A DNA stretch of 42,325 nucleotides. It comes from a virus (Duplodnaviria; Caudoviricetes). The stretch lies in IMG/VR virus record IMGVR_UViG_3300045911_000095, positions 1 through 42,325 of that record; one strand, given 5' to 3'. Under the pieces are notes generated by a model. That model was given only the letters and a program-made list of their open reading frames with translations. It was not told the DNA's origin and did not search any database. Shown here piece after piece: positions 1 through 24,283 of this stretch; the first letter of the stretch is position 1, and every line of letters begins with the position of its first letter. The position numbers were made by a program, and so were the translations under genes.

Positions 1-1792
1 TCAACTCGACGAAAAAGCTCTCATTGCCCTCAGCACTCCTGAAGCGCGTCGTGTCCTCAATGAGATCGGACGCTACATGACGCCGAGCGAGCGCGGGCAG
101 GTTACTGAACTGGTGAGCGCTCTTAAGCGCGCTGAGCGTCTGGGTAGTCCGGAAGATCAGGCAAGTCGCTTGGTCAAAGGATTCGATAAAATGTCTTCGT
201 CTGCCAAGCAGAAAATAATGCAGGAGCTTGAAAAGCAGGGTTTGATAGAAAACCCGCTCGACAATTTGACGATGACCGTCGACGTTGCGGACAAGTTTGC
301 TCGCATCATTAGGGAGAACGCCAAGAATTCTGCTCTTCTTCGCGCGGCAGAAAACTACGCCGATACTTTGCGCGGCGCGGCGCGGAGACAGTACCCGCAG
401 TATGACGAAGCTCTTAAGAAGAGCGCCGCGCTTGCTCGCGTCGGCGAAGCAGCCACCGGCACCGGAAGGTTTGATAGAACAGACTTTCTGCGTGATTTTC
501 CTGACGAGTTCGTTCAGGCGTTGCGACGCGCGGCCACTGAAGGGCCAACCCGCCCTCCCCGTTTCACGCCAGAAGAGCGAAAGGCTTACATTGAAGCCTA
601 TCAGAGCGGCTATGCGGAACTTCCCGATGGAACAGAAATTGGGTTTGATAGTCTTAACTTGCCTGACGGAGAGCTTCCTCCCGACGCCCTGCCGTTTGGA
701 GGGCTTCAAGAAGACTATAATCTTGGTTTAGCCGAACGCCTCAACTACGCTTTGCGAGAAGGAAAGCCTCTTTCGCCTGAAGCGCAGAGAATGTACGATG
801 CTATAATCGAAGAGTTTCAACTTGCCTCGCCGACGGAGCAACAGCAAATGCTGGCGCGTTACGTCGGCGGCAAAGATCTGCGACTAGACAATCCTGGATT
901 TTCATCCACAACTATATTTGACAACATCGATGAAACATCGGGTGTAGAGTATCTGACTCCTGATGAAGCTGCGGTTATAATGAACATCGAAGTTCCAAAG
1001 GGTTCGAAAGCTCTACGCTTGGATCCTTCAGAAGAGTTCGGCGATGAAGGTGAAGTTCTTCTTCCTCCTGGAACTTTCTCTCCTTCCGGCGATCGCACTC
1101 TATACGAAGGGCCGACGGAAGGAGAGGTTTATCGTCAGGACTTCAGGTTTCAAGACAATGTACCGCCGCGTCCGACAAATCCCAGTGAAGCGGAAGCTAT
1201 TCGCATCCGTGCCCGTGACGCAGTGGTCGACCGTGCCACTGGCGGCAGCGGGGCGCAAGCCATGTCGACGGCACGTCAGCTCAGCCGTGGAACCGCGCAG
1301 CAGCAACGCAACCGCGCGCTCTTGGGCGAAGAAGGCGCGGCGCAGCTTGAACGTGGTATGGAGAACGAAGTTCGGCGAGTTACCAATACGCTATACATCG
1401 ATCCACGTACTGGAAGTCCAACCGCTGGTCGTTTAGAGGACAATAGCGCGGTAAGTGAGTTCTTGGCAATGGGTGCCGACGTAGCGTCTTCGGGTAAAAC
1501 GGGTCTCATTCGTGCGACTCGCTCCTGGCTGCGCGACACAGGCATCAAGAATGTGGATGCCGAACGCCTTGTTCGTGACGCCATAAGCGAAGACCCTGCT
1601 CGTATTCGGCAAGCAATCGACTATCTCGCTCGGCGCGGCGTGAGTCGCGAACGTGCTGGCAGTATGATGCGCTGGATCAGTTCTACAGCAGCCGGACGCG
1701 CTATGGGAGGCACCTTTGGCAGCGAGCGCCCGCGTCCCATTCCAAACTCTGTTCGAGCTACGGTCAATCGGGCAAAGGTTGTCGAAGAATGA
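1..1792 (+). CDS. C-terminal part of large DNA ejection (internal virion) protein with embedded ADP-ribosyltransferase domain (5' partial)
   Basis: Frame is open from position 2 (QLDEKALIALSTPEARR...) into the 77..1792 ORF. Helical Ala/Arg-rich sequence. ART motifs LARYVG, GFSSTT, DEGEVLLPPG. Probably continues the ORF starting at 41141. Confidence 0.7.
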   Translation, partial: QLDEKALIALSTPEARRVLNEIGRYMTPSERGQVTELVSALKRAERLGSPEDQASRLVKGFDKMSSSAKQKIMQELEKQGLIENPLDNLTMTVDVADKFARIIRENAKNSALLRAAENYADTLRGAARRQYPQYDEALKKSAALARVGEAATGTGRFDRTDFLRDFPDEFVQALRRAATEGPTRPPRFTPEERKAYIEAYQSGYAELPDGTEIGFDSLNLPDGELPPDALPFGGLQEDYNLGLAERLNYALREGKPLSPEAQRMYDAIIEEFQLASPTEQQQMLARYVGGKDLRLDNPGFSSTTIFDNIDETSGVEYLTPDEAAVIMNIEVPKGSKALRLDPSEEFGDEGEVLLPPGTFSPSGDRTLYEGPTEGEVYRQDFRFQDNVPPRPTNPSEAEAIRIRARDAVVDRATGGSGAQAMSTARQLSRGTAQQQRNRALLGEEGAAQLERGMENEVRRVTNTLYIDPRTGSPTAGRLEDNSAVSEFLAMGADVASSGKTGLIRATRSWLRDTGIKNVDAERLVRDAISEDPARIRQAIDYLARRGVSRERAGSMMRWISSTAAGRAMGGTFGSERPRPIPNSVRATVNRAKVVEE

Positions 1793-3013: not shown

Positions 3014-3391
3014 ATGACCGTCGATCAAATGGCTCATCCTGAGACTACGTCCGCGCCCATAACAACCGCTGCGCAGATAAGGCAGGCTGAACTGATAGCT
3101 TTGCAGCAGATTGTCAATACTCTGAACACGATGACGAGCGACATGGCTACGCATCGTGAGAAAATGAACACGATGGTCATTGACATCGCTCTTATCAAGG
3201 AGCGCCAGACCAATCAAGCCGGTCAGTCTTTGGTGATTGAAGAGTTGCGTTCTCGCATCGAAATACTGGAGTCGCGACGGCACCAACAGGACGGAGCCGC
3301 GTCATTCGCCCGATGGCTGAAAGACTTTGGCCCGTGGGTCATTGCCGGTGCCGCCGCGCTCTGGACTTACGTGAAATCCCTAACGCCCTAA
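3014..3391 (+). CDS. Coiled-coil protein with C-terminal TM helix (holin/lysis accessory-like)
   Basis: AGGA RBS; heptad-like pattern followed by hydrophobic FGPWVIAGAAALWTYV. Confidence 0.55.
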   Translation: MTVDQMAHPETTSAPITTAAQIRQAELIALQQIVNTLNTMTSDMATHREKMNTMVIDIALIKERQTNQAGQSLVIEELRSRIEILESRRHQQDGAASFARWLKDFGPWVIAGAAALWTYVKSLTP

Positions 3392-3741
3392 GCGTCTTCC
3401 TGCTCAGCGATGAGCTGCTCCAGTTCGATGCGCGCTTGGCGGTAGCGACCCATCACAATTAGACTGATGATGAACCCGTCGCGAGTATTAAGCTGAGACG
3501 TGTATTTCCAAAGATGCTGAGAAGCATCAGGATTGACAGGAACTTCAAGCTCAATGATCTTTTCCACGTAGTGGAGTGCCTTCTTCAAGTCCTCCACGCC
3601 ATTCTTCTTGCGCCATCGCGAAATGTATTTGGTGGCGTTGCCCACGTGGTAGCCGAGACCGGAGTCATGAACCCAGTCCCAATGTTCGTACTGCATTTTC
3701 TTGTAGTGAGTTCCGCCGTGCTGTTTGCTGTTCGCACTCAT
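3388..3741 (-). CDS. DUF3310 protein (T7 gp1.7 nucleotide kinase-like)
   Basis: QHGGTHY...GNATKYISRWRKKNGVEDLKKALHY signature. Confidence 0.85.
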   Translation of the reverse strand: MSANSKQHGGTHYKKMQYEHWDWVHDSGLGYHVGNATKYISRWRKKNGVEDLKKALHYVEKIIELEVPVNPDASQHLWKYTSQLNTRDGFIISLIVMGRYRQARIELEQLIAEQEDA

Positions 3742-4310
3742 ATGAGCCTCCTTGTTGCTTCGTAAAGAACCTGCTGAAACCGACCCTTTACGGGGCAGTA
3801 GTCGGGATCGTCCATGTCATCCGAGGCTTCGATAGTTTCAAGAATATCTCGCACATATCCAAGAAAAACTTGACCGATTTGACGCATCGGCAAATTTCCG
3901 CGCTGATACTCATCTCCACAGTAGAGCGCCCCTTCCAAGCTGTCAGCTAGGTTTAGCCAAGTGCGCTCTTCTTCTGACAGTCGCCTTTCGTAGAAGGTAA
4001 GCCCAGCATTCTCTATGATGTTCTGCTCCGCCCTTTGCACCTGCTCGCGCAGACCCGGAATCTTGCGCTTGAATGGGGCCGGTATGTCGCCAGTCTCTTG
4101 CTCCGGAAGATCGTGCTGCAACGCGGCCAGGATTAGTTCCTTGGTGATCGTGTCTTCGCCAACACAGGTGACAAGCAACGCCAAGACGTTGAAGGTGTGA
4201 TGCCCCACCGTGTTTTCTTTGAGAACATCGAAGAGGTGAAACCGCTTGACGACACCCCCTCGCCGATAAAACGTGAGGGCTCTCAGAATTTCAGAGCGAC
4301 TTTTCATCAT
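3738..4310 (-). CDS. HD-domain 5'-deoxynucleotidase / dNTP phosphohydrolase (YfbR-like)
   Basis: VKRFH..ENTVGHH, ALQHDLPE..TGDIPAP, LADSLE motifs. Confidence 0.85.
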   Translation of the reverse strand: MMKSRSEILRALTFYRRGGVVKRFHLFDVLKENTVGHHTFNVLALLVTCVGEDTITKELILAALQHDLPEQETGDIPAPFKRKIPGLREQVQRAEQNIIENAGLTFYERRLSEEERTWLNLADSLEGALYCGDEYQRGNLPMRQIGQVFLGYVRDILETIEASDDMDDPDYCPVKGRFQQVLYEATRRLI

Positions 4311-5319
4311 GTGTCTTCTTCCTTCTCATAATCCAGTTTCGTGCATCCTGCCGCCAGTCCCAGCCGAGGTCCGTCTCGGGTTCTTTCAGCGCGGCCAACG
4401 CGGCGGGGTAATCCTTGGCCTTGTGGTGAGCCCATGCCCGTAACATAGGCTCAACTGTGCTGATGAAAAAGGGGTGAAAAAATTCTTTTGTCTCTCCATT
4501 CTTGACCAGATCGATACAGTCACTTTCGAACATATTCGGTTTTCCATCAATCATGCCGCGCGGTTTGTGAGAGTGTCCAAGATAGAAGTTTGAACTATCT
4601 ACATCGATGCGAACTTTCCGAGACGGGTACTTCAAGACATTATCGTAGAGGTGATAGTTGTTGCTGAACTGGATCATTTCTCCAACCAGCAACCTCAGTC
4701 GTTCTGCCATGTACTCTTGCAGAACGCTGAAGTGAACAGCGTTTGCTCCATGCGCGCCCCACAGAATATCGTTGCTCCGACACAGTACGGTCATGTGCAG
4801 CCGATCTTTGACGATACGGAAGTAGACGTGGGTATTGCATGGTACGTCAGTAGTTCCACGCGCAACCGCGCCCAAGTCCCCGAAGCCTGACGGCCCGCCG
4901 TCCCACATTGTCAGAACAGCGCGTCGCGAATTGGGGTCTTTGGTAAGCTGATCCACAATCGTCTCCAACTGATCGTATTCAAAGTAGTGTCTCCATCTGT
5001 AGCCGTAGGCTCCCGGCTGAGTAGTGCCCCCATCATCGGAGAAGTTGGCCATGCGCTTGTTGAATTGGCTGAGCCACTCTAGGTCATTGGAACCGGCCAG
5101 CATCCATAGGCTCTCGAATAGATGAAAGAATGGATTGGCGTCTCGCAAGGGGCTGAACAGCACCCGCTCCATCGGCCGTTCGGTAACAGTCACTACGGGG
5201 CCGGGAGCAACTGTGACCGGCCCGTTGCGGCTCGTCTCTTTGACCCCGTATTTCTCCAGATAGTACAGCCCGCTTGCCAGCGCGTCGTTGACATTGCGAA
5301 CTTGCATTACATGAATCAT
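4291..5319 (-). CDS. Thymidylate synthase-family enzyme, probable dUMP hydroxymethylase
   Basis: RDANPFF..ESLWML, AYGYRW, SRRAV, catalytic PCN, RSNDILWGAHGAN (Asn at the dUMP-specificity position), NNYHLY; start placed at MIHVMQ after GGAG. Confidence 0.85.
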   Translation of the reverse strand: MIHVMQVRNVNDALASGLYYLEKYGVKETSRNGPVTVAPGPVVTVTERPMERVLFSPLRDANPFFHLFESLWMLAGSNDLEWLSQFNKRMANFSDDGGTTQPGAYGYRWRHYFEYDQLETIVDQLTKDPNSRRAVLTMWDGGPSGFGDLGAVARGTTDVPCNTHVYFRIVKDRLHMTVLCRSNDILWGAHGANAVHFSVLQEYMAERLRLLVGEMIQFSNNYHLYDNVLKYPSRKVRIDVDSSNFYLGHSHKPRGMIDGKPNMFESDCIDLVKNGETKEFFHPFFISTVEPMLRAWAHHKAKDYPAALAALKEPETDLGWDWRQDARNWIMRRKKTHDEKSL

Positions 5320-5320
5320 G

Positions 5321-6304
5321 TTACTTCTCCCATTCACGTTTTACAGGCGGAGTCAAAGGTTTCTTGGACGCCTGCTCATCCAAGAATTTCTTACCAGCAG
5401 GTGTCGGCTTGGGCAGCTTGTCGCGCCCGAACTTGTCTGGCAGCAGGCCGACACGGTAGCTCGTTGCATCGCAGCCCGCGCATGGGCCGAAGTCACGCAA
5501 TCCGAGGATCAAACGCTTGCGCGCTTCGTCCATCACTCTGCCGTGCCATATGTCCATCAGTCCGACTTTGTGAATGTTACCGGTGGCCAGCTCTCCCCGC
5601 CAGTCGTTGCAGCAGATGGCCGTGGAACCGTCCCACCTAAAACTCAGCTCGCGGAAGGGCTTGGCGCAGGGCTTCCCCTGCCCCGCGTCGCTTTTGGGGG
5701 CACCCGCCCCCGCGTGATTGTTCAGCGTGGCGTGAGTGCCCTCCGTATTGGCGTCGATGGGGCGTATATGCACTAGCCGCCGCGCGCTAGGCTTTTGCCT
5801 TGCGTGAGGGTTGCCCAGCGGGTCGTCGGGATACACGTAGAACTCGAAGCCGCGCTCACTTTTGGGTACAGAAGAAAGTTCGGCGTTGATGGCTGCAAGG
5901 ATCTTGGGAACGAGGTTGACGTTCTGGTATTCATCCAGCCCAAGCGTGTTCAGACCCGCGTTGAATAGCGCGCGTATTCTTTCCAAGCCCTTTGGCCCTT
6001 GCAATCCTCCGCCATTGGAGAGCATCAGCATACTGGCACGGGGCAGATGCTTGCGAAAGATAGCGATGATCTTTGCTGCGTCGGGATGCAGGGATGGCTC
6101 GCCGTGCATTGCGAACTCAATGCGGCTGTTCCACCTGTGGCGCGCCAGTTCACTAGCGATGCGTTCGGCGGTCTTGGCCGTCATGAACTTGTATGTCCGC
6201 TCTTTGCCGCGAATTCCGTTGATGCCGCAGAAAGAGCAGCGAAGGTTGCACCCCTCCACCAGTTCTATCTGAACTGCGAACGGTGGCTCTTGTCTGTAGA
6301 CCAT
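5321..6304 (-). CDS. Radical SAM enzyme with C-terminal SPASM/Twitch domain
   Basis: CNLRCSFC (CxxxCxxC), HGEPSLHP, SNG; C-terminal CAKPF..ICCNDW..GN..CAGCD. Confidence 0.9.
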   Translation of the reverse strand: MVYRQEPPFAVQIELVEGCNLRCSFCGINGIRGKERTYKFMTAKTAERIASELARHRWNSRIEFAMHGEPSLHPDAAKIIAIFRKHLPRASMLMLSNGGGLQGPKGLERIRALFNAGLNTLGLDEYQNVNLVPKILAAINAELSSVPKSERGFEFYVYPDDPLGNPHARQKPSARRLVHIRPIDANTEGTHATLNNHAGAGAPKSDAGQGKPCAKPFRELSFRWDGSTAICCNDWRGELATGNIHKVGLMDIWHGRVMDEARKRLILGLRDFGPCAGCDATSYRVGLLPDKFGRDKLPKPTPAGKKFLDEQASKKPLTPPVKREWEK

Positions 6305-6306
6305 AG

Positions 6307-7149
6307 TCAGCTCCTTGGAGTGTAGCGTTGCTTGGGTCGCCCTTCTCTCAGACGAATTCGCTCATACTTGTCGAATTCACAGAGGCAATTCTGCAAGTCT
6401 TGCGCTGTCAGCGGCTCCATGCTCAGCCGCGCATTGACTTTGTCTCGCAACTCACGCAGCGTGTTGCGGAATACTTGTTCACGCCATGGAGCGTTGACAT
6501 CGCGCTCCATGACCCTGTTCAAGCCGCGCCGACTTCCCGGCCCGCTTGCGGCGAAGGTATGAAAATCGATCCAATTGTTTTGCGTGGAGTACTTGATGTC
6601 CGCCAGAACTTGCGCCGCCATGAAGCTCCCTAATCCATGCCAGTTTGTCAGCAGTGCATGAATGTCTTCCATCGAGTTCATCTGCATCATGCGATTCATT
6701 AAATCTGCGCGCTTATTCCACATGGGAATGAGAACGACGTCCAGGACATAGTCGATCTTATTCATCGACCTTCCATTGGTGCTGACGATGTAGGCCGCAT
6801 TGAAATTTCGTAGTCCTGTGTTCGCACGTTGCTTGAGAAAGCTGCGCATTCGTTTGGGAACAAATGGAACTACTGAGTCTTGAATGGCGGTCAGCGTTTC
6901 TTCGTTGTTGAAGAATCGCGCAACTGTGGCCGCGAACCAATGATACTCTTCCGGATACTGCTTCAACCAGTTAAGAACGAACTTGGTGACGCGGTCGTCG
7001 TTGCGTCGCACGTTGCAGAATCGCCATTCGCTGATTATAGGATCGACGTTTGTGTAGCTACGAAACGTCAGCGGGTTCTTACCATCCTCCTTCCAAATGC
7101 GGTGCCGTTCACGAGCCTTGATGAACTTGACAAGATCAGTAACTCGCAT
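6307..7149 (-). CDS. Amino acid:DNA transferase family (alpha-glutamyl/putrescinyl thymine pyrophosphorylase clade 1, HhH-glycosylase fold)
   Basis: RFCNVRRNDDRVT, GLGSFMAAQVLAD, GPGSRRGLNR, QNCLCEFDKYER; GGAGG RBS before MRVTDL. Confidence 0.85.
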   Translation of the reverse strand: MRVTDLVKFIKARERHRIWKEDGKNPLTFRSYTNVDPIISEWRFCNVRRNDDRVTKFVLNWLKQYPEEYHWFAATVARFFNNEETLTAIQDSVVPFVPKRMRSFLKQRANTGLRNFNAAYIVSTNGRSMNKIDYVLDVVLIPMWNKRADLMNRMMQMNSMEDIHALLTNWHGLGSFMAAQVLADIKYSTQNNWIDFHTFAASGPGSRRGLNRVMERDVNAPWREQVFRNTLRELRDKVNARLSMEPLTAQDLQNCLCEFDKYERIRLREGRPKQRYTPRS

Positions 7150-7150
7150 T

Positions 7151-7921
7151 TTAGAGCCTCCCCGATTGATAGGCTTTCTTCCAGCTGATTCGCACGTCTT
7201 CACGCTCGGCCCACGCATCGCCGCTCTTGGCTTGCTTCTTGACCACAGTCACGAATTTCGGGTGCAACTTGGCCAGCCCCCGCGCGCCTTTGGACTGCAC
7301 TTCCATGGAGCGATAGGTGGAGCAGCCCCCTGGAGCGTTGCTACGCCCTTGATCTTGACACCAACGGTTCAGAGTGACGCTTTCATAGCCGAGTCGCAGA
7401 AGCTGAAGCGCGACGTCAAAATCTTCCATGACTGGTAGACGATCGAACCGAACGCCCTCTCTCTTCAGAATATCGGCGTTGTATCCCAACGCGCGCAGAC
7501 ACCGCGTATTACGAATGAAGTAATCGTCGGGGTTACGGTTAGCGCCTTCTCTTACTGCGATGGACGCATGAGCATAAGTCTTGAGTATGCTCTCCATAGC
7601 TTTCAGCATCAGCGTTACATCGGTCGCGTCGGCCCTCTGCAGAAGTTGGGGGTTGTCCTTTCGCCGCACGAAGAAGCTCAGGTCGTCGTCCAGCATCAGC
7701 ACCGGCCCTTCACTTATGTCGATTATGTGCTGGCGAACTTTGCCGATGCCTTTGACGTCGACGACGTAAAGTGCTTCTTTCCCGAAGCGAGCGGCATAAG
7801 GTTTGAAGTCTTTCGCTCCGATGACCATTTTCGTGCGCGCCCGCGCAGCGGGAGGAAGATGGTCGATTGTGTGATGTGCTTGATCTGCCCTGCCAAGGCT
7901 TGGAATGAATATCTGCATCAT
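7151..7921 (-). CDS. TET/JBP-associated (GREB1/base-J GT-like) GT-A fold glycosyltransferase
   Basis: IFIPSLGRA, GIGKVRQHI, LMLDDD (DxD), MEDFDVALQLLRLGY, SNAPGGCS; GGAG RBS before MMQIF. Confidence 0.75.
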   Translation of the reverse strand: MMQIFIPSLGRADQAHHTIDHLPPAARARTKMVIGAKDFKPYAARFGKEALYVVDVKGIGKVRQHIIDISEGPVLMLDDDLSFFVRRKDNPQLLQRADATDVTLMLKAMESILKTYAHASIAVREGANRNPDDYFIRNTRCLRALGYNADILKREGVRFDRLPVMEDFDVALQLLRLGYESVTLNRWCQDQGRSNAPGGCSTYRSMEVQSKGARGLAKLHPKFVTVVKKQAKSGDAWAEREDVRISWKKAYQSGRL

Positions 7922-7940
7922 TTCTTCTCCACAGATCAGA

Positions 7941-7974
7941 AACCCCGCCACTCTCGAACGAAAGCGGCGGGGTC
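7941..7974 (-). terminator. GC-rich hairpin, probable terminator/attenuator
   Basis: Minus strand GACCCCGCCGCTTTC-GTTC-GAGAGTGGCGGGGTT followed by TCTG, just downstream of 7995..8687. Confidence 0.55.
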
Positions 7975-7994
7975 TGAGGCGGGTAGCGCCAGCG

Positions 7995-8687
7995 TTACCC
8001 GATGGCGATGAAGCCCTTGTCAGCGGCCCACTTGAAGTCCAGCCGACGGTCGCCGTACTCGGCGTCATTGGCGAGGGCTTCGCGCGCAGCCGCCGAGGTC
8101 TTGTACGACATGATGATCTCGACCATCCGGCCCGTCCACGAGCCGGCCCGCACCTTTTCAGCCGCCTCCTTCGGCGTCATCAGATGCTTGTACGTGAAGT
8201 CCGCGGCGACGCGGCCACGACCCGAGCCGGTCTTCTCCTTGGCTGGCGCGTTGCCCTTCGTCGCAGCGGCGGGCTTCTTGGCGGGGGTGCCGGTCTTGGT
8301 CTTGAGCTTCTCTGCCATGATATTGTACTCCTCTTCTGTTATGGTGATATGTTCACCGACTAAACGTACTGCTTCGGGGGTTGCTCCCTCGGTCAGCATT
8401 TGTACCTTTAGCTCCTCTAATGCTGACTGTAAAGAACAATTTTCGTCCAAAGTGTAGTTTTTCATCTGCCAGTTGGGAATGATGCGATCACGCACTCCCA
8501 ATTGGCTAGGAATGTTGACCACCCGCTGAACCGCCAAGGTGCCCTCAAACGTAGGGGCTAGCATAAATACCCTGCCAAACTGCCCTCCGATGGCCGTAGC
8601 AGGGTCTCTGGCCACACAGGGAACAAAGCCGGTAGGCCACCAGCTAGGCAAGGGCGGCGGCGTCTCAGGAGCTTTACGCTTGGGCAT
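7995..8687 (-). CDS. Hypothetical protein; C-terminal paralogous 'RxGxWT/DFxWxxxK' domain; likely internal start at 8318
   Basis: Coupled to the helicase stop (TAATG); internal GAGGAG-9nt-ATG at 8318 followed by a K/A/P-rich linker and the conserved domain. Confidence 0.65.
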   Translation of the reverse strand: MPKRKAPETPPPLPSWWPTGFVPCVARDPATAIGGQFGRVFMLAPTFEGTLAVQRVVNIPSQLGVRDRIIPNWQMKNYTLDENCSLQSALEELKVQMLTEGATPEAVRLVGEHITITEEEYNIMAEKLKTKTGTPAKKPAAATKGNAPAKEKTGSGRGRVAADFTYKHLMTPKEAAEKVRAGSWTGRMVEIIMSYKTSAAAREALANDAEYGDRRLDFKWAADKGFIAIG

Positions 8688-10159
8688 TAGCGCCCCCTAC
8701 GGTTGGCCAGCGCCTCCAGCAGCGCGGCTTGTGTGCGGGTCTTGCCCCGCTGAACGTGGAACACTGTTTCATCTACGGTATCCTCTGCAAGAATATGGTG
8801 GACGAACGCCCGCTTGCTCTTGTTCCCTTGGCGTATCACACGCTTGATGAACTGGTCATAGAGTTCCAAGTCCCAGAACATGGAGAACCAGATCACGTGT
8901 TGAGCGCTGCCCTTCTGAAAGTTCAGACCGTGCCCCATGCTGGCGGGGTGCCCGAATAGAATAGGAATTTCGTTATTATTCCACCTCTCTTCCAGAGCTT
9001 TCGTGGCTTTGAGTGTCTTAGCGTCACACATGAACTCGGCTTCAGGAAACGCTTTTCGCAGACGGTCGCGGTCGTGATTGAACTCGTAAGCCACCAGAAC
9101 CGGCGCGCCGTTGAGTTCATCGACGAGATCACGTAGGGCTTGCAGCTTCAGATCGTGAAGCTCCAGCACGTCGCGCTCTTTTCCCAGAACTTTACTCGCC
9201 AAGTCATCGTCGACATAGACGGCCCCGTTGCATATCTGCCGATGCTTCGTTGTCTTGGCGGCGGCGTTGCTGGCAATGACTTCTTTGTTTTCGATAGAAG
9301 CGATCAGCTCGGCTTCCAGCTTGTCGTATAGCCCGCGCACCTTGGGTGGAAGTGCGACGTAGTGCTTGAGATACACTGTCTCGGGCAGTTCTAGATGATC
9401 TTCCGCGCTGGCGCGCATGGCGAGCGGCTTTATCGCTTCGTAGATACGTTCCGCAGCTCCAGGCTGAAGAACCCACTTCCAGCCATTAGGATCGACAGCT
9501 CGAAAGTATTTTGTGCGATAGTGGGTGATGTAGCGCCCGAGCGCATTGCCCAGATCCAGAACATACATTTGTCCGAACAAGTCCAGCAACCCATTCGGAA
9601 CAGGAGTGCCCGTCAGCCCCCAACGGCGCATGAAAGTCGGCAACACCTGCTTGAGTAGCTTGAACCGGACGCCTTTTGGATGCTTGAACTTGGTAAGTTC
9701 GTCGATGACAAGAGTGTCAAAGCCAAACGCCTTCCAGCGTCGCAGGTCAACAGACTGACCGCCGTCCGTCAACAGCCACGACAACCCTTCGGGGTTAATC
9801 ACCAGAATATCGTAGTCTTCGTAGTTCTCAAGAACCTTCTTCTTTTGTGGCCCATGAAGCAAGCCGACGCGCAGATGCTCCAAGTCGCTCCACTCTGTCG
9901 GCTCCGCAGGCCAGACAAGTTGCGCCACGCGCAGGGGCGCGATTACGAGGGTGCGACGATTCGTCTTGGCGCGCTTGAGGGCGTCCAGAGCCTTTAGCAC
10001 TGTGGCGGTCTTGCCCATGCCTGGATCAAACAACAGCGCCGCCGCCCCGTGCGACAGAAGAAACTTAACTCCGCGCCTTTGATAGTCGTGAGCGTTTTCG
10101 CTGAACGCGGGTTTCGATGGCTTCAAGAGCGGCTTCTTCGCTATCTGTCCACGCGACAT
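8687..10159 (-). CDS. SNF2-family DNA helicase
   Basis: DPGMGKT (motif I), IAPLRVA, VIDELT, LTGTP, GHGLNFQ, QFIKRVIRQG. Confidence 0.92.
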   Translation of the reverse strand: MSRGQIAKKPLLKPSKPAFSENAHDYQRRGVKFLLSHGAAALLFDPGMGKTATVLKALDALKRAKTNRRTLVIAPLRVAQLVWPAEPTEWSDLEHLRVGLLHGPQKKKVLENYEDYDILVINPEGLSWLLTDGGQSVDLRRWKAFGFDTLVIDELTKFKHPKGVRFKLLKQVLPTFMRRWGLTGTPVPNGLLDLFGQMYVLDLGNALGRYITHYRTKYFRAVDPNGWKWVLQPGAAERIYEAIKPLAMRASAEDHLELPETVYLKHYVALPPKVRGLYDKLEAELIASIENKEVIASNAAAKTTKHRQICNGAVYVDDDLASKVLGKERDVLELHDLKLQALRDLVDELNGAPVLVAYEFNHDRDRLRKAFPEAEFMCDAKTLKATKALEERWNNNEIPILFGHPASMGHGLNFQKGSAQHVIWFSMFWDLELYDQFIKRVIRQGNKSKRAFVHHILAEDTVDETVFHVQRGKTRTQAALLEALANRRGR

Positions 10160-10388
10160 CGTAACCTAGTCCTTCCAGCATATCGTGAATGTGAACCTGC
10201 TTTGGCTCTGGTGAATAGCCAACTTCCTTGAATTCTATGAGAAACGGGCGACCACCTGGAATGAGAAACATTCGGTCTGGCCAGCCCGTTTCGCTGCCAC
10301 GGGGCGGCTCCAGCTTGATGCTTGCCACCCCGTAACGCTTCAGAGCTTTGTCGCGTACGGAGCGCTCCAGGAAGCTTTCTCTACGCAA
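10065..10388 (-). CDS. VRR-NUC domain nuclease
   Basis: ESFLE..., GWPDRMFL, FLIEFK, Q..IHDML..LG; probable TTG start at 10388. Confidence 0.8.
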   Translation of the reverse strand: MRRESFLERSVRDKALKRYGVASIKLEPPRGSETGWPDRMFLIPGGRPFLIEFKEVGYSPEPKQVHIHDMLEGLGYDVAWTDSEEAALEAIETRVQRKRSRLSKARS

Positions 10389-10683
10389 CGATGCTTGCCT
10401 TCTTGAGGGCGTCCTGTGCCACTTCAAGCTCTGTGAGGGCGTCGTGCAGACGAGTCACTGCGGCTTCCAGACACACCATTGATCCGGGATGCGAAGTAAT
10501 GTCGTTGTCGCTGGTCGGGACGAGTTCTCCTCGCGACTCGTAGTTGCCGATGATCTGCGTGTTGACGGTTTCCACGCGCGCTCTGATCGTGTTGATGCGG
10601 TCGATAGCACCGAGGAGGGCGGACTCCATGGCGTTCAATCGAGTTTCGACGTGCACCTGTTGAAAATCTTTTTCGTTAATCAT
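10381..10683 (-). CDS. Hypothetical coiled-coil protein
   Basis: AGGAG RBS before MINEKDFQ; tightly packed in the operon. Confidence 0.6.
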   Translation of the reverse strand: MINEKDFQQVHVETRLNAMESALLGAIDRINTIRARVETVNTQIIGNYESRGELVPTSDNDITSHPGSMVCLEAAVTRLHDALTELEVAQDALKKASIVA

Positions 10684-10693
10684 TTTTCTTCTC

Positions 10694-10858
10694 CTAGTTT
10701 TCGAGGAAGACACGCATCCGCGCGGCTTGCTCTGGGGTTAAAGTTATGGTCAGAACATGGCGCTTGCCAGGAAACATTCTACCTGCCGAGCGTTCCATGT
10801 AGAGAGCAGGGCTATCACTTTTTCCCACAATCTCAAGTTCAACTTTGACGCTTTTCAT
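10694..10858 (-). CDS. Small hypothetical protein (54 aa), not in the ORF track
   Basis: AAGGAG RBS; MKSVKVELEIVGKSDSPALYMERSAGRMFPGKRHVLTITLTPEQAARMRVFLEN; fills the gap. Confidence 0.6.
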   Translation of the reverse strand: MKSVKVELEIVGKSDSPALYMERSAGRMFPGKRHVLTITLTPEQAARMRVFLEN

Positions 10859-10903
10859 AGCTGGCTCCTTTGCTTGCAGTATAGCCCAAGTTGTAAGGAC
10901 TAC

Positions 10904-11578
10904 CTAGCCCGAATTGTATGGGCATGGCCCGCCCTTATCCTTCGCGTAAGAACACCAGCGGCACTTCGTGTTCGGAGTGGGAGCGAACCGTCGATCATTG
11001 AACATCGGAACAACCTTCTTTTCCCAGTCTTTACGAATGAGCTCGCCATCTTTAGCGGTGTACGTCCGCAGAACTTCGTTGTCTGTCGGTTGGTCGAGAT
11101 ACCACAGCCGCACCTGAATTTCTTTCAGATTTGAAAACTTCTTGAGTGTAGCTGCGCCGAAGAGTTCAACCTGTTCTTCGTTGATGTCGTATTTGCGCCC
11201 TGTCTTGAAGTCGATGACTTCAGCGGTATCATCGTCATAGAGAACAGCAACGTCCGCAATGATGCGTACCCATGTCTTCTTACCGAACCAATCGGTCGGC
11301 TCCCAGCTCTTGGTGAAGCCCCACTGCTGCTCCACCATAGGTGACAGAGATTTGAGCTGCTTCATCTCTTCGGCGAAGTGCTGATAACTCGCGGGCACCG
11401 TGTCAATCGTTGAATCTTTCAAGTATAGCTCGCCTTCCTTGTGAATAGTGGAACCGCGCTCCATGGCGGGGCTAACCTCACCCTCAGGAACTTTGTCCAG
11501 ATACTTCAGCTTGAACCGAAGCGGACATTGCTTGTAATCGGCGTATCTGCTATACGACCATGCTGTCAGGAGAGCCAT
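10904..11578 (-). CDS. PD-(D/E)XK / Cas4-like exonuclease
   Basis: WSYSR..QCP, GSTIH, IADV..IDFKTG, C-terminal CRWC..C. Confidence 0.85.
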   Translation of the reverse strand: MALLTAWSYSRYADYKQCPLRFKLKYLDKVPEGEVSPAMERGSTIHKEGELYLKDSTIDTVPASYQHFAEEMKQLKSLSPMVEQQWGFTKSWEPTDWFGKKTWVRIIADVAVLYDDDTAEVIDFKTGRKYDINEEQVELFGAATLKKFSNLKEIQVRLWYLDQPTDNEVLRTYTAKDGELIRKDWEKKVVPMFNDRRFAPTPNTKCRWCSYAKDKGGPCPYNSG

Positions 11579-11697
11579 TCGTAATAGAACCTTTCGCCAG
11601 TAGGGAGAGTAATTCTTCCTACATACTTCAGCCAAATGCGCTTGTTGTTCACTGTGGTGACTGGATACCATGCGAACCATCTTTTCGCTTTTGCCAT
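11566..11697 (-). CDS. Small hypothetical protein (43 aa)
   Basis: MAKAKRWFAWYPVTTVNNKRIWLKYV...; TGATG coupling; WFAWYPV motif is common in small phage proteins. Confidence 0.55.
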   Translation of the reverse strand: MAKAKRWFAWYPVTTVNNKRIWLKYVGRITLPTGERFYYEWLS

Positions 11698-11945
11698 CAG
11701 TGTTTCACCTTCCGTGTATCGACTTCGTAGTGCCCAAAGAGTCGTTCTCTGAGTACGAATTTGATGAGGCCAAGTTCGTTACAACTTTCTAGATTACTAG
11801 TTGTAGAGACATCACCAGTAGTACAGTCGCCGAGAATAATGACGACGGCAGGGCGTTCAATGCCGAGTTTTATCGCGACCTCGAAAACCATGTCACAATA
11901 GTCTTCTAGAGGAACTTCGCGGGTGCTGCCATTTTTCCTACTCAT
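11697..11945 (-). CDS. Hypothetical protein
   Basis: Start MSRKNG overlaps the polymerase stop; fills the operon. Confidence 0.55.
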   Translation of the reverse strand: MSRKNGSTREVPLEDYCDMVFEVAIKLGIERPAVVIILGDCTTGDVSTTSNLESCNELGLIKFVLRERLFGHYEVDTRKVKH

Positions 11946-13845
11946 ATCTGCTTTTCCCTTCTGTGAATTTCTTCTGCTGACCCCAAGAAGATCCACTCTT
12001 ACCCTCGCTCAGCATGGGGACATCCATCTGTTCGCTTATACACTCCATACTCTCACGGAGCACCTGCATTTCGGCCTTGGGGTCGGGGCCGCTGGACGCG
12101 TTCATTTCGTCATAGACCTGAACAAGAAAGCGCCCGCGCCGCTTGGGATGCTCGTTGTAGTTGATCATCGCTTGCTTGGTGACGTCGGCCGCACTGCCCT
12201 GACACAGATAGTTGAGCAGCTTGTATTCATAGGTCATGTCTCGACCGTGTTTCTTATTGAATCCAGGCGGTTCCACATAGTAGGCGCGCCCGCCCCATGT
12301 GAACAGGCAATCACCAGCCTTGCCTAGCGCCTTGCAACGGTCCGCAAGCCCGCCGCGCCCCGTAAGGCTAGGCAATGCCCGCTTGTGCGCGTTGAGAAGG
12401 CTCTTAGCCTCCTCGATGCTGCATCCTATGCCGCCAGCGGTGGCAGGCGCGCCGCCCCCATAAATGATGCGAAAGTTCGCAATCTTTACGTTCTTGCGAG
12501 TAAAGGTAAGACCCGTTGTCGATGTAATCAAGTCCGCGGCAAATTGGTGAACGTCCAGCCACGGGTTGTCTTGATACGCCCGCATCAGCGGCCCATCTTC
12601 GAAATGGGCAGCTAGTCGTAGTTCCTGTCCATTGTAATCTCGATGAAGCCATTGTTCTCCTGGATCAGGAAGAAGGTAATTCCGAACCAAGGGGAGCGGA
12701 GGCACGTCGAGGAAAGAAGGATGCTCGTAACCGTCATCATTATTGTCCCACGTCTTGCTGATATTCAGAAAGTTCGGGTTCGTCGTACTCGGCCTGCCGG
12801 TGCGAGTGCCGCCACCTTCGTTGCGAATCTGGTTCCAGTTCGTGCTGATGTACCCGTCGCCCCGCCGATCTGCCTGCTCCAACCACGGCGACATGAACAT
12901 CTTCAAGCAAGTCGTCAAACGATTGCGGTAGCCGAACGTGCTGGCAACGCGCGGGTCGGTGTAGAGGTCGGGGGTCAGCGTCTTCTTGCTGATGCTGTAG
13001 CGTCCCGTCGCTGTGAGTGCCAAGTCTTCTTTGCGCACTACGCCACAGCGCAGAAGAGCTTCCAGAACTTCACCGTCGTTGTCCAGACTTATGTTGTCTG
13101 CCTTCAGACGCTTGCGCAGCCAGTCATCGGCTTTGACGAGAGCGGCGCTGTAAATCTTGACATCTCGCCTTAGCCGACGAACATCTACACGAATGCCGAC
13201 TCGCTCATTGTCTAAGAATATCGGCATGACTTTTTGCTCGCGCTGATACGCGGCAAGCATCCCATGCTGATTGATGACGTAGTCCCAGCTACTCTTGAAC
13301 AGCTCCCACGTTCTGTCCGTGTCGCCCTTGGCATATTTGCCGACGAGGTCTCCGGGCGCTTGAGCGATGTGCTTTCCCCATTCGCTCGGCTTGAACGGCC
13401 CATGCTCTGCTTCGATAGAACGTTTGTTGGCCATGACCCATTCGCGAACAGCATCCTGTTCCTCCGGCGGGGTGTCAAGGAACCGCTCGGCCAACGGCTT
13501 CAGACCTAGCTTAGGGCTATGCGGGTCACGTAGAAACATGATGAACATCGCGTCGTGCATATCGAGCGCGGGAAGGCGCAGCATTCCAAGATGCGTCTCA
13601 GCCACGTCGACGTCGAACTTGCCGTTGAAGAACAATATCCCTTTGCTCGGACGCCAGATAGAGGAAAGGGCGTTGATAGCATCTTGCTTAGTGCAATTGT
13701 TGCCGGTTGGATGCCCCCAAGCGAAATAGCGCGAAGCCTTGCCGGGAAGGCGGATGCTGACGCCAACAGGCTCGGGGGGATAGTTAGGTCGCGCTTCGAT
13801 ACCTTTGGTTTCAAAGTCAACGCATGGTAGAGATGGGCAGCGCAT
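11938..13845 (-). CDS. DNA polymerase family A with 3'-5' exonuclease domain
   Basis: ExoI VDFET, FNGKFD, YAKGD; TGRPS.TNPNFLN, motif A DYNGQELR, motif B RKNVKIANFRIIYG, NYLCQGSAAD, motif C VYDE; GGAG RBS before MRCPS. Confidence 0.95.
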   Translation of the reverse strand: MRCPSLPCVDFETKGIEARPNYPPEPVGVSIRLPGKASRYFAWGHPTGNNCTKQDAINALSSIWRPSKGILFFNGKFDVDVAETHLGMLRLPALDMHDAMFIMFLRDPHSPKLGLKPLAERFLDTPPEEQDAVREWVMANKRSIEAEHGPFKPSEWGKHIAQAPGDLVGKYAKGDTDRTWELFKSSWDYVINQHGMLAAYQREQKVMPIFLDNERVGIRVDVRRLRRDVKIYSAALVKADDWLRKRLKADNISLDNDGEVLEALLRCGVVRKEDLALTATGRYSISKKTLTPDLYTDPRVASTFGYRNRLTTCLKMFMSPWLEQADRRGDGYISTNWNQIRNEGGGTRTGRPSTTNPNFLNISKTWDNNDDGYEHPSFLDVPPLPLVRNYLLPDPGEQWLHRDYNGQELRLAAHFEDGPLMRAYQDNPWLDVHQFAADLITSTTGLTFTRKNVKIANFRIIYGGGAPATAGGIGCSIEEAKSLLNAHKRALPSLTGRGGLADRCKALGKAGDCLFTWGGRAYYVEPPGFNKKHGRDMTYEYKLLNYLCQGSAADVTKQAMINYNEHPKRRGRFLVQVYDEMNASSGPDPKAEMQVLRESMECISEQMDVPMLSEGKSGSSWGQQKKFTEGKSRYE

Positions 13846-13856
13846 AATTTCTCCAT

Positions 13857-13908
13857 GAAAGAAGGGGCAGAGCAACAGTCTCGGGTCGCTTTTGACTGGC
13901 TCTGCCCC
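13857..13908 (-). terminator. Rho-independent terminator-like extended hairpin
   Basis: Minus strand GGGGCAGAGC-CAGTC...GACTG-TT-GCTCTGCCCC followed by TTCTTTC. Confidence 0.7.
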
Positions 13909-13964
13909 CGACACAAGACTAGCTATCAGAGGTGAAGAGGGATGTTTCTGATCGCAGCCTGTGT

Positions 13965-14804
13965 CTAACGCTTGCCCCTGCCGCCCGTCAGCTTCTTGTT
14001 CGCGGCCGCGCGCGCCCTCGGCTGCTCGTCTTCGTCTTCGGTGAAGGGCACGTACGGGAAGTCGATGCTGTCGTACGCCTTGCGATAGCGCGCCATCAGG
14101 GTCGGTATCAGTTCGCTGTCCACTTCGTCCATCAGCTCGAAGTTGATCTTGAACTGGCTCTTCGGGTCGGGGGTCAGATAGATGCGCGTGTAGACCGCGA
14201 ACAGCGGCTTGCGCAACTGATCAGCGACTTCACGCACGTATGCGTCGAAGCCCTTGCCACTCATGACCGGAACCTTCAGATAGACAGCTTCGCAGGTAGC
14301 GAAATGGTCAGGGTCGTTGAAGAGCTCGACCTCGAACCCGCCGCCACGTCCCTGCGGGGTATAGGTGCCAGCGGGCAGACAGGCGAGCCGTCGCCGATTG
14401 CCGCAAGCCTTGCCCCGACCCTTGGCGGCGCTGCCCCATTGGTTCTGCGGACAGTCGTGACAGGTCGGCGACTGCGGCGAAAACGCGGGGTCAGCCATGT
14501 GCTCCGGGTTCGGCCCCATTTCATTCTTGAGCTCGGGGTCTTTGCAGAACGCGAAGCAGGTCGGCGGAGTGCGGTTGTCAGGATCGAAAGCCTCCTCGTA
14601 GTAGACATTCTCCAGACACCATGCGGCGACGATCACGATCATCTGGTTTCCGGGAAGAGGAACATCGTCGTATTGCAGCACTCCCGCTCGGGTGCTGAAG
14701 AACTTGCCCCCGCCGCCGCTGTCGGTCAGGACGGCGGAAGTTCCTGCCAGTTTGGCAAGTTCTTCGTCGTAGTTGACGATGTCTTGTGTGGGTTTCTTGG
14801 CCAT
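13965..14804 (-). CDS. Conserved phage replication-module protein, putative ssDNA-binding/annealing protein
   Basis: PTCFA..CHDCPQNQWGS..GKAC.NRRRLA pattern, acidic C-terminal patch, strongly biased codons, adjacent to PolA. Confidence 0.5.
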   Translation of the reverse strand: MAKKPTQDIVNYDEELAKLAGTSAVLTDSGGGGKFFSTRAGVLQYDDVPLPGNQMIVIVAAWCLENVYYEEAFDPDNRTPPTCFAFCKDPELKNEMGPNPEHMADPAFSPQSPTCHDCPQNQWGSAAKGRGKACGNRRRLACLPAGTYTPQGRGGGFEVELFNDPDHFATCEAVYLKVPVMSGKGFDAYVREVADQLRKPLFAVYTRIYLTPDPKSQFKINFELMDEVDSELIPTLMARYRKAYDSIDFPYVPFTEDEDEQPRARAAANKKLTGGRGKR

Positions 14805-21533: not shown

Positions 21534-21929
21534 TCAGATGAAACGAATGTAGTTCTGTTTGTCGGCCAGCCACTTCCAGTCGATAGACCGTTCGCGGTAT
21601 TGCGGATAGTTGTCGAGAAGCCACCGTTCAGCTTCGAGAGTATTGGTGTTCGTAATGGCAGCAGTGACCATCACGGCTGTCCAAGTTCCCGAACGATGAC
21701 GGCGATCGGCCGAATAATCGACGATCTCGTAGGTTGCGCCGCGCCGCTTGGTTCTGCGCCTAGGCGCGGGCGCGGGCGCGGGCGTAGGGGTCGGAGTGAG
21801 ATACTGAAAGCGCGGCGAATCGTTAGGTAAGCGCTCCTTCGGCGCGCGAGTTTCGACCTTGTCGGTCGACTGGAGTAGTTCAAGTAGAACCTTCACTTCT
21901 CCAGGATCAATGAATTTGGTTACTTCCAC
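21534..21929 (-). CDS. Hypothetical protein; paralogous C-terminal domain
   Basis: AAGGAG RBS, GTG start; PTPAPAPAP linker then RSGTWT..MV...IDWKWLADKQNYI. Confidence 0.7.
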   Translation of the reverse strand: MEVTKFIDPGEVKVLLELLQSTDKVETRAPKERLPNDSPRFQYLTPTPTPAPAPAPRRRTKRRGATYEIVDYSADRRHRSGTWTAVMVTAAITNTNTLEAERWLLDNYPQYRERSIDWKWLADKQNYIRFI

Positions 21930-21967: not shown

Positions 21968-22585
21968 TCAATTTTTATTGATGAAATCTCCCCACTGCCT
22001 GGCCATCGCATCGGCGATTCCTTGGTATGTTTTGGAGCGCAGCTTCCAGCGATCAGCGGACGGACCCAAGTAATGAAGACGCTGGCGTTGATTGTCGGGG
22101 AGCGATTTCGTTTCCGCCTTCAGGTCGCTCGTCGGCTTCAGCGGGGGTAAACCCCGCAGCCACAAGCACGTCGCTTTTTGCTCCAAATGCCCGAACTGAT
22201 AGGGCTGGATTGTCTGCGCTTGCTGTAGACCACCGATGCGTTCCTTGGCGTATTTGTGCATGATTGGATTCTCGATGGCGACCGCCTTGATGGGCGCATC
22301 CCAAAGCGCGCGGAAAAACGCGGCGGCTTCGTCCAACTTTGCCCATCTGGTCGGGTCTTTATGCAAATGGCACACGCCGCTGTTTGTCATGTATGTGCAT
22401 GGCGGGTGGGCGATCATAATATCCCAATCGCCACGATAGGCGATTTCCAGCGCGTCGCCTTGTATATGCCAGCGCGGGTCACCATCAGTCGGCAACAGGT
22501 CGCACGACCACGCATCAAACCCACGGGCACGGAACGCATCTCTGACAGTGGCGCTGTATTCACAGGCAACCAGAATGCGTTTCAT
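21968..22585 (-). CDS. Phage C5-cytosine DNA methyltransferase-like protein
   Basis: LVACEYS, WSCD, AHPPCT (catalytic PC), IENP, QP.QFGH, K.TCLW, RSKTY.GIA.AMA.QWG. Confidence 0.75.
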   Translation of the reverse strand: MKRILVACEYSATVRDAFRARGFDAWSCDLLPTDGDPRWHIQGDALEIAYRGDWDIMIAHPPCTYMTNSGVCHLHKDPTRWAKLDEAAAFFRALWDAPIKAVAIENPIMHKYAKERIGGLQQAQTIQPYQFGHLEQKATCLWLRGLPPLKPTSDLKAETKSLPDNQRQRLHYLGPSADRWKLRSKTYQGIADAMARQWGDFINKN

Positions 22586-23720: not shown

Positions 23721-24206
23721 TTAGTTCAGGAACTGGATGAAGCCCTTCTTGGCGGCCCAGTTGAAATCCAGCGGCTTGGGGTTGCCGTTGGGGAACCTGT
23801 AGCTACGTTCACGTTCGGCGCGCGTAGCTTCGGTTGCCTTGGCCGTGGAAGTGTGCCGCAGGATCTGCTCCACCATGTAGGTCGTCCAGGTGCCCGGCCG
23901 AACCTTCGTTTCGGCGAAGGTCATGAGAGCCTTGTACTTGCGGTCCCCGTTGGGGGCAGGCTTGGCCGGTTTGGCCGGTTGCGCCTTGCCCTTGGCCGGT
24001 TGCGCCTTGCCCTTGGCCGGTTGCGCCTTGCCCTTGGCGTCGGCGACAGCCTTGGCCGAATTGGGCGCGTTCTTGGCGGTCACGCCGGTTGCCAGCTTGG
24101 GGCGCGGCTTGGGAGCGACACCCGTAAGGGTGATCTTCCTGACCGTACGCTTGCCGTTGGCGTCCGTGGTGACTTCCAGGGCGGTGGACGTGGTAGCATT
24201 TTCCAT
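23721..24206 (-). CDS. Basic early protein; K/A/P repeat linker + paralogous C-terminal domain
   Basis: AAGGAG RBS before MENATT; (AKGKAQP)x3; RPGTWT.YMV...LDFNWAAKKGFI. Confidence 0.75.
   Translation of the reverse strand: MENATTSTALEVTTDANGKRTVRKITLTGVAPKPRPKLATGVTAKNAPNSAKAVADAKGKAQPAKGKAQPAKGKAQPAKPAKPAPNGDRKYKALMTFAETKVRPGTWTTYMVEQILRHTSTAKATEATRAERERSYRFPNGNPKPLDFNWAAKKGFIQFLN
23971..24033. repeat. 21-bp tandem repeat x3 (coding AKGKAQP)
   Basis: TTGGCCGGTTGCGCCTTGCCC repeated three times. Confidence 0.9.
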
Positions 24207-24242
24207 GTTAGTTCTCCTTGCATATGCAAAGCACACCATGCG

Positions 24243-24283
24243 CCTTGCCCTATGCCCCCGTGGCGCAGGGGCATAGGGCAAGG
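24243..24283. repeat. Perfect 16-bp inverted repeat
   Basis: CCTTGCCCTATGCCCC-9nt-GGGGCATAGGGCAAGG. Confidence 0.9.

Follow-up and report, generated by a model that had tools for sequence, protein, structure and literature searches.

A kinase-less phage gene cassette with a glycosyltransferase and a BtrN-like radical SAM enzyme: a candidate pathway to a sugar-bearing thymidine analogue

We analysed a stretch of viral DNA of 42,325 nucleotides (IMG/VR record IMGVR_UViG_3300045911_000095; Duplodnaviria, Caudoviricetes), here called the window, which represents a whole contig. The subject of the analysis is a cassette of six contiguous minus-strand genes, abutting or overlapping and running from 7921 down to 3388, that is predicted to modify thymidine in the phage DNA. 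The cassette and the hairpin next to it are laid out as follows.

7939..7975 (approximate), minus strand: GC-rich hairpin just upstream of the first cassette gene, a putative terminator-like or processing site
7151..7921, minus strand: GT-A DNA glycosyltransferase (GT) of the TAGT/JGT family (PF20691 TAGT, E 7e-19)
6307..7149, minus strand: clade-1 aGPT-Pplase, a homologue of phage M6 gp55 (PF18723, E 2e-38)
5321..6304, minus strand: BtrN-like Twitch radical S-adenosylmethionine (SAM)/SPASM enzyme, assigned by profile and AlphaFold2 (AF2) model
4291..5319, minus strand: thymidylate synthase (TS) homologue of the dUMP hydroxymethylase type, with motifs as in M6 gp58
3738..4310, minus strand: HD/YfbR-like 5'-deoxynucleotidase (PF12917, E 3e-11)
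3388..3741, minus strand: DUF3310 protein, M6 gp61-like and associated with nucleotide modification (PF11753, E 1e-10)

With family matches for all six genes, the contiguous operon proposed in a preliminary description of this DNA is borne out. The hairpin has a z of -4.45, none of 200 shuffles folds as well, and a comparable long hairpin stands before the GT or kinase gene in five of the six relatives examined. A sigma-70 promoter scan of the window gave matches at chance level only.

The window encodes a P22-like podovirus gene set (portal, coat, family A polymerase, SNF2 helicase and primase), and CheckV puts its completeness at 98%. Both contig ends are open inside one large ejection-protein open reading frame (ORF), and they map about 25 nt apart in the relatives G001, G047 and G048. 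The gene inventory is thus effectively complete, and we reject the idea that the short unsequenced remainder conceals a kinase.

This matters for the enzymes that the cassette lacks. The preliminary description had reported no kinase for 5-hydroxymethyluracil (5hmU) in DNA, no pyridoxal phosphate (PLP) decarboxylase and no TET/JBP dioxygenase, and a kinase search across the window had been set beforehand as a test. Profile searches with positive controls for the kinase and TET confirm these absences. The sole window match to the kinase profile phrog_800 is the Walker A motif of an AAA ATPase (E 8e-5), compared to E 9e-42 to 3e-26 in the positive controls M6, PaMx11 and Pam3. A local profile built from 24 kinases of related phages reached E 0.02 in the window versus 1e-51 to 1e-61 in three relatives. 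PF18748 gave no match in the window; this model overlooked the kinase of relative G051 that the local profile caught and was hence not used alone. The TET/JBP model (PF12851, Tet_JBP) found nothing in the window (G000) and did find G041, and the PLP enzyme model PALP had no match in the window. PF18724, the model for clade-2 amino acid:DNA transferases (AADTs), did not match the window either and was above cut-off only in three control phages among 54 records. Nor did the window yield a dCMP deaminase or any gene that we could recognise as a dUTPase/MazG or dNMP kinase. Furthermore, none of the 15 virus records that carry the radical SAM gene and are at least 90% complete has a kinase-domain match above the Walker A level. 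Matches to phrog_800 in the window and its kin were rejected as Walker A motifs and, in G015, as an alignment of the clade-1 gene to the profile's C-terminal portion (coordinates checked). As a side observation, phrog_800 is annotated 'terminase small subunit' and is matched by the 5hmU DNA kinases of M6, PaMx11 and Pam3, so that the label looks misannotated.

The TS homologue is about 41-44% identical to the M6-like, PaMx11, Pam3 and phiJL001 enzymes and has the motifs D-x-P-C-N (as D-V-P-C-N) and RSND..GANAVHF, the same as M6 gp58. We judged its specificity by the residues that PMC13326640 gives for hydroxymethylating, dUMP-specific enzymes and for 5hodCMP synthases (D169N). The catalytic Cys, Asp at the position of Escherichia coli L143 (hydroxymethylating type), N177 (dUMP) and D169 are all kept as in M6 gp58; the D169N change of the 5hodCMP synthase is thus not seen in the window. 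The dUMP-type homologue named earlier is therefore upheld, and we consider dUMP hydroxymethylase activity highly probable from these residues. The neighbouring HD gene occupies the same position as the HD gene of M6 (gp59), and its product is likely a dTMP/dTTP-depleting enzyme.

The GT carries both marks of the TAGT/JGT glycosyltransferases, PF20691 and the R..DDD..EDY/F motif (Pyle et al., 10.1101/2023.12.21.572611). Across 27 homologues R11, D78-D80 and D167 are invariant and E166 nearly so, and the isoelectric point (pI) of the window protein is 9.7. We then asked which genes accompany the clade-1 gene, taking the best 80 of 219 loci. TS is present in 68 of them, DUF3310 follows TS/HD in 63, a kinase is found in 25 and a GT in 29, and no locus has both kinase and GT. 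The exclusion holds among 53 representatives at 70% identity (kinase only, 20; GT only, 18; neither, 15; both, 0; Fisher p 1.7e-5). On a quick clade-1 tree with 90 rows, it takes 17 changes to explain the distribution of the kinase label, and well-supported branches force at least 10 of them. An independent set anchored on the helicase (77 of 78 loci analysed) likewise has 14 loci with kinase, 12 with GT, none with both, nine with TS only and 42 with none of these.

Six near relatives (59-82% polymerase identity), compared gene by gene, vary in the slot before the clade-1 gene.

G001: GT and radical SAM enzyme
G047 and G048: GT without radical SAM enzyme
G049 and G050: kinase
G051: kinase and AADT

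Among cultured phages, phiJL001, LuckyBarnes and RSL1 combine GT, clade 1 and TS and lack a kinase. The circular genome W07 has GT, TS, HD and DUF3310 without a clade-1 gene, as found by a search that had no ringing control. From the exclusion, the slot swapping and W07 together, the GT seems to offer another way of capping the 5-hydroxymethyl group in the kinase's place, while the clade-1 protein would have a job common to both caps. On the grounds of the family motifs and the exchange with the kinase, we predict with good confidence that the GT glycosylates 5hmU in DNA. The kinase-less, base-J-like glycosylation suggested in the preliminary description is thus supported by the TS motifs, the exclusion, the slot swapping and the restriction-site signature directed at T that is described below. 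In four loci, a further, unassigned family takes the place of kinase or GT ahead of the clade-1 gene (L089:6832-7971, L097:104-1057, L104:6094-7017 and L127:4281-5429); it matched nothing in Pfam, nor the GT-B family by profile. Only a wider count of 42/80 treats it as GT; the conservative 29/80 leaves it out.

The second cassette gene had been labelled an amino acid:DNA transferase, which our analysis does not bear out. The window protein is a clade-1 member, about 31% identical to M6 gp55, whereas the proven AADTs belong to clade 2 (M6 gp51), and BLASTP of the window protein against M6 gp51 gave no significant match. The M6 clade labels are swapped in the 2018 table (PMC5889632). The Pfam models side with the 2022 assignment (PMC8989533), in which gp51 is the clade-2 AADT and gp55 is dispensable for the first transfer step in the M6 reconstitution. 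The AF2 model (pLDDT 93) has a helix-hairpin-helix fold and aligns to PUGT with Z 11.1 and a root-mean-square deviation (rmsd) of 3.8 over 218 aligned residues, tied with 8-oxoguanine glycosylases; the clade-1 profile had no match among PDB sequences. Residues C257, E258 and K261 are invariant. Clade 2 needs a metal-binding Glu-Thr at positions i-4/i-3 of the catalytic Cys (PMC11472151, PMC13458397). In the window, Cys257 is kept, but its context is Q-N-C-L-C compared to E-T-V-L-C in M6 gp51, that is, Gln-Asn replaces Glu-Thr. Glu versus Gln four residues before the Cys was tried as a marker for the kinase and rejected, as Pam3 combines kinase and Gln.

In our literature search we found no paper that gives the clade-1 aGPT-Pplase an activity. 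The mature DNA of M6, ViI, phiW-14 and SP10 is described as containing no 5hmU (PMC8989533), and all four phages encode a clade-1 paralogue (PMC5889632). This fits a role in which the clade-1 protein converts uncapped 5hmU to T, the Cys forming an exocyclic methylene, which we put forward tentatively; no reductant for the step was identified. Podoviruses with kinase, clade 1 and TS and with no clade-2 AADT detected in the flank (L077, L078, L081 and L090; G049 and G050) would offer the cleanest test of clade-1 function. Some clade-1 genes have neither TS nor kinase nor GT in the flank that was fetched (L116, L131, L133, L135, L137-L140 and L145-L147), several of them on large phage contigs.

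The same protein could act in another way. If the sugar took over the phosphate's part as activator or leaving group, the clade-1 protein would displace or rebuild it with a nucleophile or hydride, and the final base need not be a glycoside. Consistent with such a displacement, the GT fills the kinase's slot directly before the clade-1 gene, 19 of the 25 loci with kinase and clade 1 show no clade-2 AADT within the fetched flank, and SP10 makes glutamyl-T with only a kinase-fused PPlase1 (PMC5889632, Table 3). The equivalent of the catalytic Cys is also kept, in a fold resembling PUGT. However, the metal-binding pair of clade 2 is replaced, gp55 is dispensable for transfer in M6, W07 has the GT without the clade-1 gene, and 10 of the 38 dereplicated radical SAM loci described below have no clade-1 gene in the flank. 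An O-glycoside is, by general chemistry, a poor leaving group, and tailoring a sugar that is later discarded would be uneconomical. We thus regard displacement as decidedly improbable. The earlier proposal, in which the transferase would tailor or displace the sugar, has at best weak support: the clade-1 protein is not an AADT, its gene occurs equally with kinase or with GT, and W07 combines GT and TS without it.

The radical SAM enzyme has the CxxxCxxC motif plus one four-Cys Twitch cluster (cysteines 213/231/275/278) in a BtrN fold. Its profile matches BtrN in the PDB with E 2e-26 (next match 1e-6), and its AF2 model (pLDDT 93.8) has BtrN as Foldseek match (4m7t; TM 0.83 by target, 16% identity). 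There is an extra invariant Cys, C232. By hidden Markov model alignment, His197 and Cys232 correspond to BtrN Arg152 and Phe188, which we take to be pocket residues.

We found 1,595 homologues of this enzyme among 3,196 candidates; the three Atlas clusters listed for it are 97-100% viral, and the loci comprise 56 viral ones and two in contigs of prokaryote genomes. A neighbourhood survey for the kinase-less combination of GT, clade 1 and radical SAM enzyme, which had been suggested as a check, gave a GT in 55 of the 56 viral loci; TS accompanies the enzyme in 40 of them and clade 1 in 36, and no locus has a kinase. After dereplication (n=38), 37 have a GT, 36 of these within 1.2 kb, the exception being truncated by the end of its contig; TS is present in 31, only 17 of these within 1.2 kb. 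Among eight longer homologues, six are fusions to a GT (GT-A in either order, or GT-B) and two have intein-like insertions. The partner can thus be GT-A or GT-B; the GT-B family has weak Pfam GT1 support and no match among PDB sequences. The pair of radical SAM enzyme and GT is also found with TET/JBP (G041, L043). Since the enzyme tracks the GT and not the base-making enzyme, we infer that its substrate is a sugar. This is likely, and the tailoring of the sugar that had been proposed earlier is supported by the co-occurrence, the fusions and the BtrN-like fold. We predict from sequence and model a sugar-tailoring oxidase or epimerase. In NeoN, epimerisation uses a Cys as hydrogen donor (PMC10991966). 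In the related enzyme HygY, a single Cys reportedly separates epimerase from dehydrogenase. Together with the invariant C232, this makes epimerisation a lead and not a result.

If the substrate is a sugar, the enzyme could work before or after the transfer, and we slightly prefer the DNA-bound sugar over the nucleoside diphosphate (NDP)-sugar donor. Acting on a host NDP-sugar before the transfer, it would make a phage-specific donor, and the base would still be a new glycosyl-hmU. The BtrN substrate is a small free aminocyclitol, the enzyme pairs with unrelated GT-A and GT-B folds, and epimerases accompany phage DNA GTs (Pyle et al.), all of which would agree with the donor route. Yet a change made before the transfer would have to suit both GT folds. 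The enzyme is also as basic as the GT (pI 9.6; the family median is 8.7, compared to 6.3 for TS and 5.8 for HD), and parts of it that extend past BtrN hold invariant Arg residues, although these are weak arguments. We consider the donor route unlikely.

A simpler outcome would be DNA with plain glucosyl-hmU (base J) or hmU/T only, the radical SAM enzyme being an accessory for the base, for a nucleotide (viperin-like) or for a virion glycan. Here it counts that G048, the nearest polymerase relative, has the GT and no radical SAM enzyme, and that Pyle et al. report 'viperin' annotations in clusters that combine GT and ThyS. The window enzyme does match the viperin model NF038283, but weakly (E 1e-4; 21 bits compared to a cut-off of 180), and the Twitch cluster and BtrN match far outrank it. 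In addition, the enzyme nearly always stands beside a GT or is fused to it. We thus find plain base J quite unlikely.

Some relatives of the radical SAM genes have further neighbours. In L022-L025, L035 and L048 (about 9200-11600 in L022), GT and radical SAM enzyme are flanked by APS kinase and a sulfotransferase-like protein (recognised by eye; no Pfam match), and RSL1 (L062) has an annotated sulfotransferase and APS kinase next to its GTs, suggesting sulfated DNA sugars. A second, more distant radical SAM/SPASM subfamily occurs in the same cassette of L110, L113, L114 (about 6990-7960) and L093; it has a GT-B-like neighbour in L110 and no match in cultured phages.

We also looked for a trace of the modification in restriction sites. 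Some 6-bp palindromes are strongly avoided in the window; GGCGCC, for instance, occurs 0 times with 52 expected (both strands). As a measure, we compared observed/expected ratios of T-free and TC-containing 6-bp palindromes. The window has 0.55 and 0.85, 12 loci with the GT cassette have 0.54 and 0.91, six kinase loci have 0.37 and 0.85 (two further ones were dropped as duplicates), and for 21 helicase relatives that lack the cassette the values are 0.79 and 0.53 (four of 25 were dropped for too little flank). Phages with the GT cassette are hence depleted in T-free sites and spare those with TC, which their cassette-less kin do not. The TC minus T-free difference between GT-cassette and cassette-less loci has p 2e-6, with kinship and host uncontrolled. 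The positive control M6 and PaMx11 had a TG preference, in line with PMC6449724, and 4-bp palindromes gave no clear signal. With hosts and kinship uncontrolled, the signal supports a working T modification in the GT-cassette phages and predicts a TC context, and it proves neither.

Taken together, the reading that we lean towards is a glycosylated 5hmU whose sugar is reworked by a radical enzyme, a base that would be undescribed. In this proposed pathway, TS would make 5hmdUMP, the HD and DUF3310 proteins would probably bias the nucleotide pool, and the phage polymerase would insert 5hmU in place of T. The GT would then cap the hydroxymethyl group in DNA with a sugar from a host NDP-sugar, base-J-like and at a subset of sites, standing in for the kinase. 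The radical SAM enzyme would abstract a hydrogen from the sugar, oxidising or inverting one centre, while the clade-1 protein would most likely turn uncapped 5hmU into T. We would expect the modification to concentrate at 5'-TC.

Several observations weigh against this proposal. With no dCMP deaminase, dUTPase/MazG or dNMP kinase recognised, T replacement may be partial or host-dependent. A basic pI is a poor sign of action on DNA, as the proven AADTs are acidic, and the GT family includes sugar-on-sugar enzymes (phrog_842). At 16% identity to BtrN, the reaction type of the radical SAM enzyme is not fixed, and we found no match to the enzyme in 50,697 phage records, nor does any cultured phage in the collection have it. 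The complete genome G038 has the radical SAM and GT pair with neither TS nor TET found, so that the acceptor need not be 5hmU everywhere. This genome (L046/G038, region 3730-14771) is a 95-kb phage with two Twitch radical SAM enzymes, two TAGTs, a radical SAM enzyme that depends on B12, another radical SAM enzyme and a PolIII-alpha-UDG fusion; no clade-1 gene was found in it either. Finally, the palindrome test did not recover the published TC context of M6, the signal of the window alone is weak (p 0.04, uncorrected), and it is common to kinase-type kin. A more far-reaching version of the proposal seems doubtful to us: that the radical SAM family, widespread in phages, remodels DNA-attached sugars (to a keto sugar, or by inversion with Cys232 as hydrogen donor) into a so far undescribed base-J derivative, that phosphate and sugar are interchangeable caps which related phages exchange, and that clade 1 is the missing kinase-free enzyme for 5hmU to T.

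When comparing the cassette to known systems, the clusters of M6/YuA, PaMx11, ViI, phiW-14 and SP10 (PMC8989533, PMC5889632) share the dUMP hydroxymethylase, clade 1, HD and DUF3310, arranged alike and close to a family A polymerase, and the 5hmU platform. In contrast to this pathway, the window has no 5hmU DNA kinase, clade-2 AADT, PLP enzyme or flavin adenine dinucleotide (FAD) enzyme and has the GT in the kinase slot; its BtrN/Twitch-like radical SAM enzyme had no match to M6 gp53 in a local search. Base J (JBP and JGT of trypanosomes) and the TET-associated phage clusters use the same GT-A family and motifs to place sugar onto 5-hydroxymethylpyrimidine in DNA, whereas in the window the hydroxyl would come from the TS homologue before replication, the predicted acceptor is U and not C, and a radical SAM step is added. 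BtrN (the butirosin DOIA dehydrogenase), SpeY, HygY and NeoN have the radical SAM core and four-Cys Twitch in common with the window enzyme; BtrN is the best match in sequence and fold, and the window enzyme differs from it in being viral, GT-linked and changed at His197/Cys232. The glycosylated thymidines of SP-15, Carin-5 and YerA41 (PMC12686479) are also sugar-bearing T analogues in phage DNA; however, they rely on a (di)hydroxypentyl-phosphate linker and on NDP-sugar genes of their own, none of which was recognised in the window.

The pathway had been called undescribed, which holds in part. HTVC023P-type pelagiphages (PMC9599517), phiJL001, LuckyBarnes and RSL1 have the same kinase-less core, and TS, aG/PT-PPlase1, 5'-deoxynucleotidase and GT have been noted in the pelagiphages as gene content, without chemistry (PMC9599517). 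The version with the radical SAM enzyme was not found in the literature searched: this family is absent from the cultured phages and from the text of the pelagiphage paper. PMC13229309, PMC12686479 and PMC11955845 describe other T pathways. Pyle et al. list many ThyS-associated GT-A contigs, their 'viperin' annotations may be these radical SAM enzymes, and 'radical' is absent from the main text. We found no description of a cassette of GT, Twitch radical SAM enzyme and hmU; Iyer 2013 and the supplements of Pyle et al. lay outside the search, and the latter may list the enzyme.

Other features of the genome are the following.

41102-42325 and 1-1792, plus strand: ejection protein, one large ORF split by the contig ends
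18487-18963, minus strand: pyrimidine-dimer glycosylase-like gene, outside the cassette
21968-22585, minus strand: short DNA methyltransferase-like gene (phrog_757)
7995-8687, 21534-21929 and 23721-24332, minus strand: three ORFs sharing a small C-terminal domain

The first of these three ORFs (7995-8687) is the cassette's immediate upstream neighbour, and relatives conserve it. In the ejection protein, residues 271-333 of the ORF 77-1792 match an ADP-ribosyltransferase domain weakly (PF03496, E 4e-5), which is reminiscent of the injected Alt of T4, and a tblastn search with this region gave no match in close relatives. Public sequencing runs that contain the stretch carry hot-spring or microbial-mat metagenome labels, and it may derive from the two best of them.

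In the literature examined, the 5hmU-based T hypermodifications of phages start with phosphorylation by the kinase. The cassette points to a second, sugar branch, which occurs in clade-1 loci about as often as the kinase branch does. As GT, GT with radical SAM enzyme, kinase, and kinase with AADT are variants within one phage group, and as phiJL001 and LuckyBarnes are in culture, two questions become testable: whether base J exists in phages, and what clade 1 does, including the conversion of 5hmU to T before packaging. If the proposed pathway is true, what the radical SAM enzyme does to a DNA glycan would be a new chemistry and could plausibly serve to escape glycosyl-specific type IV restriction.

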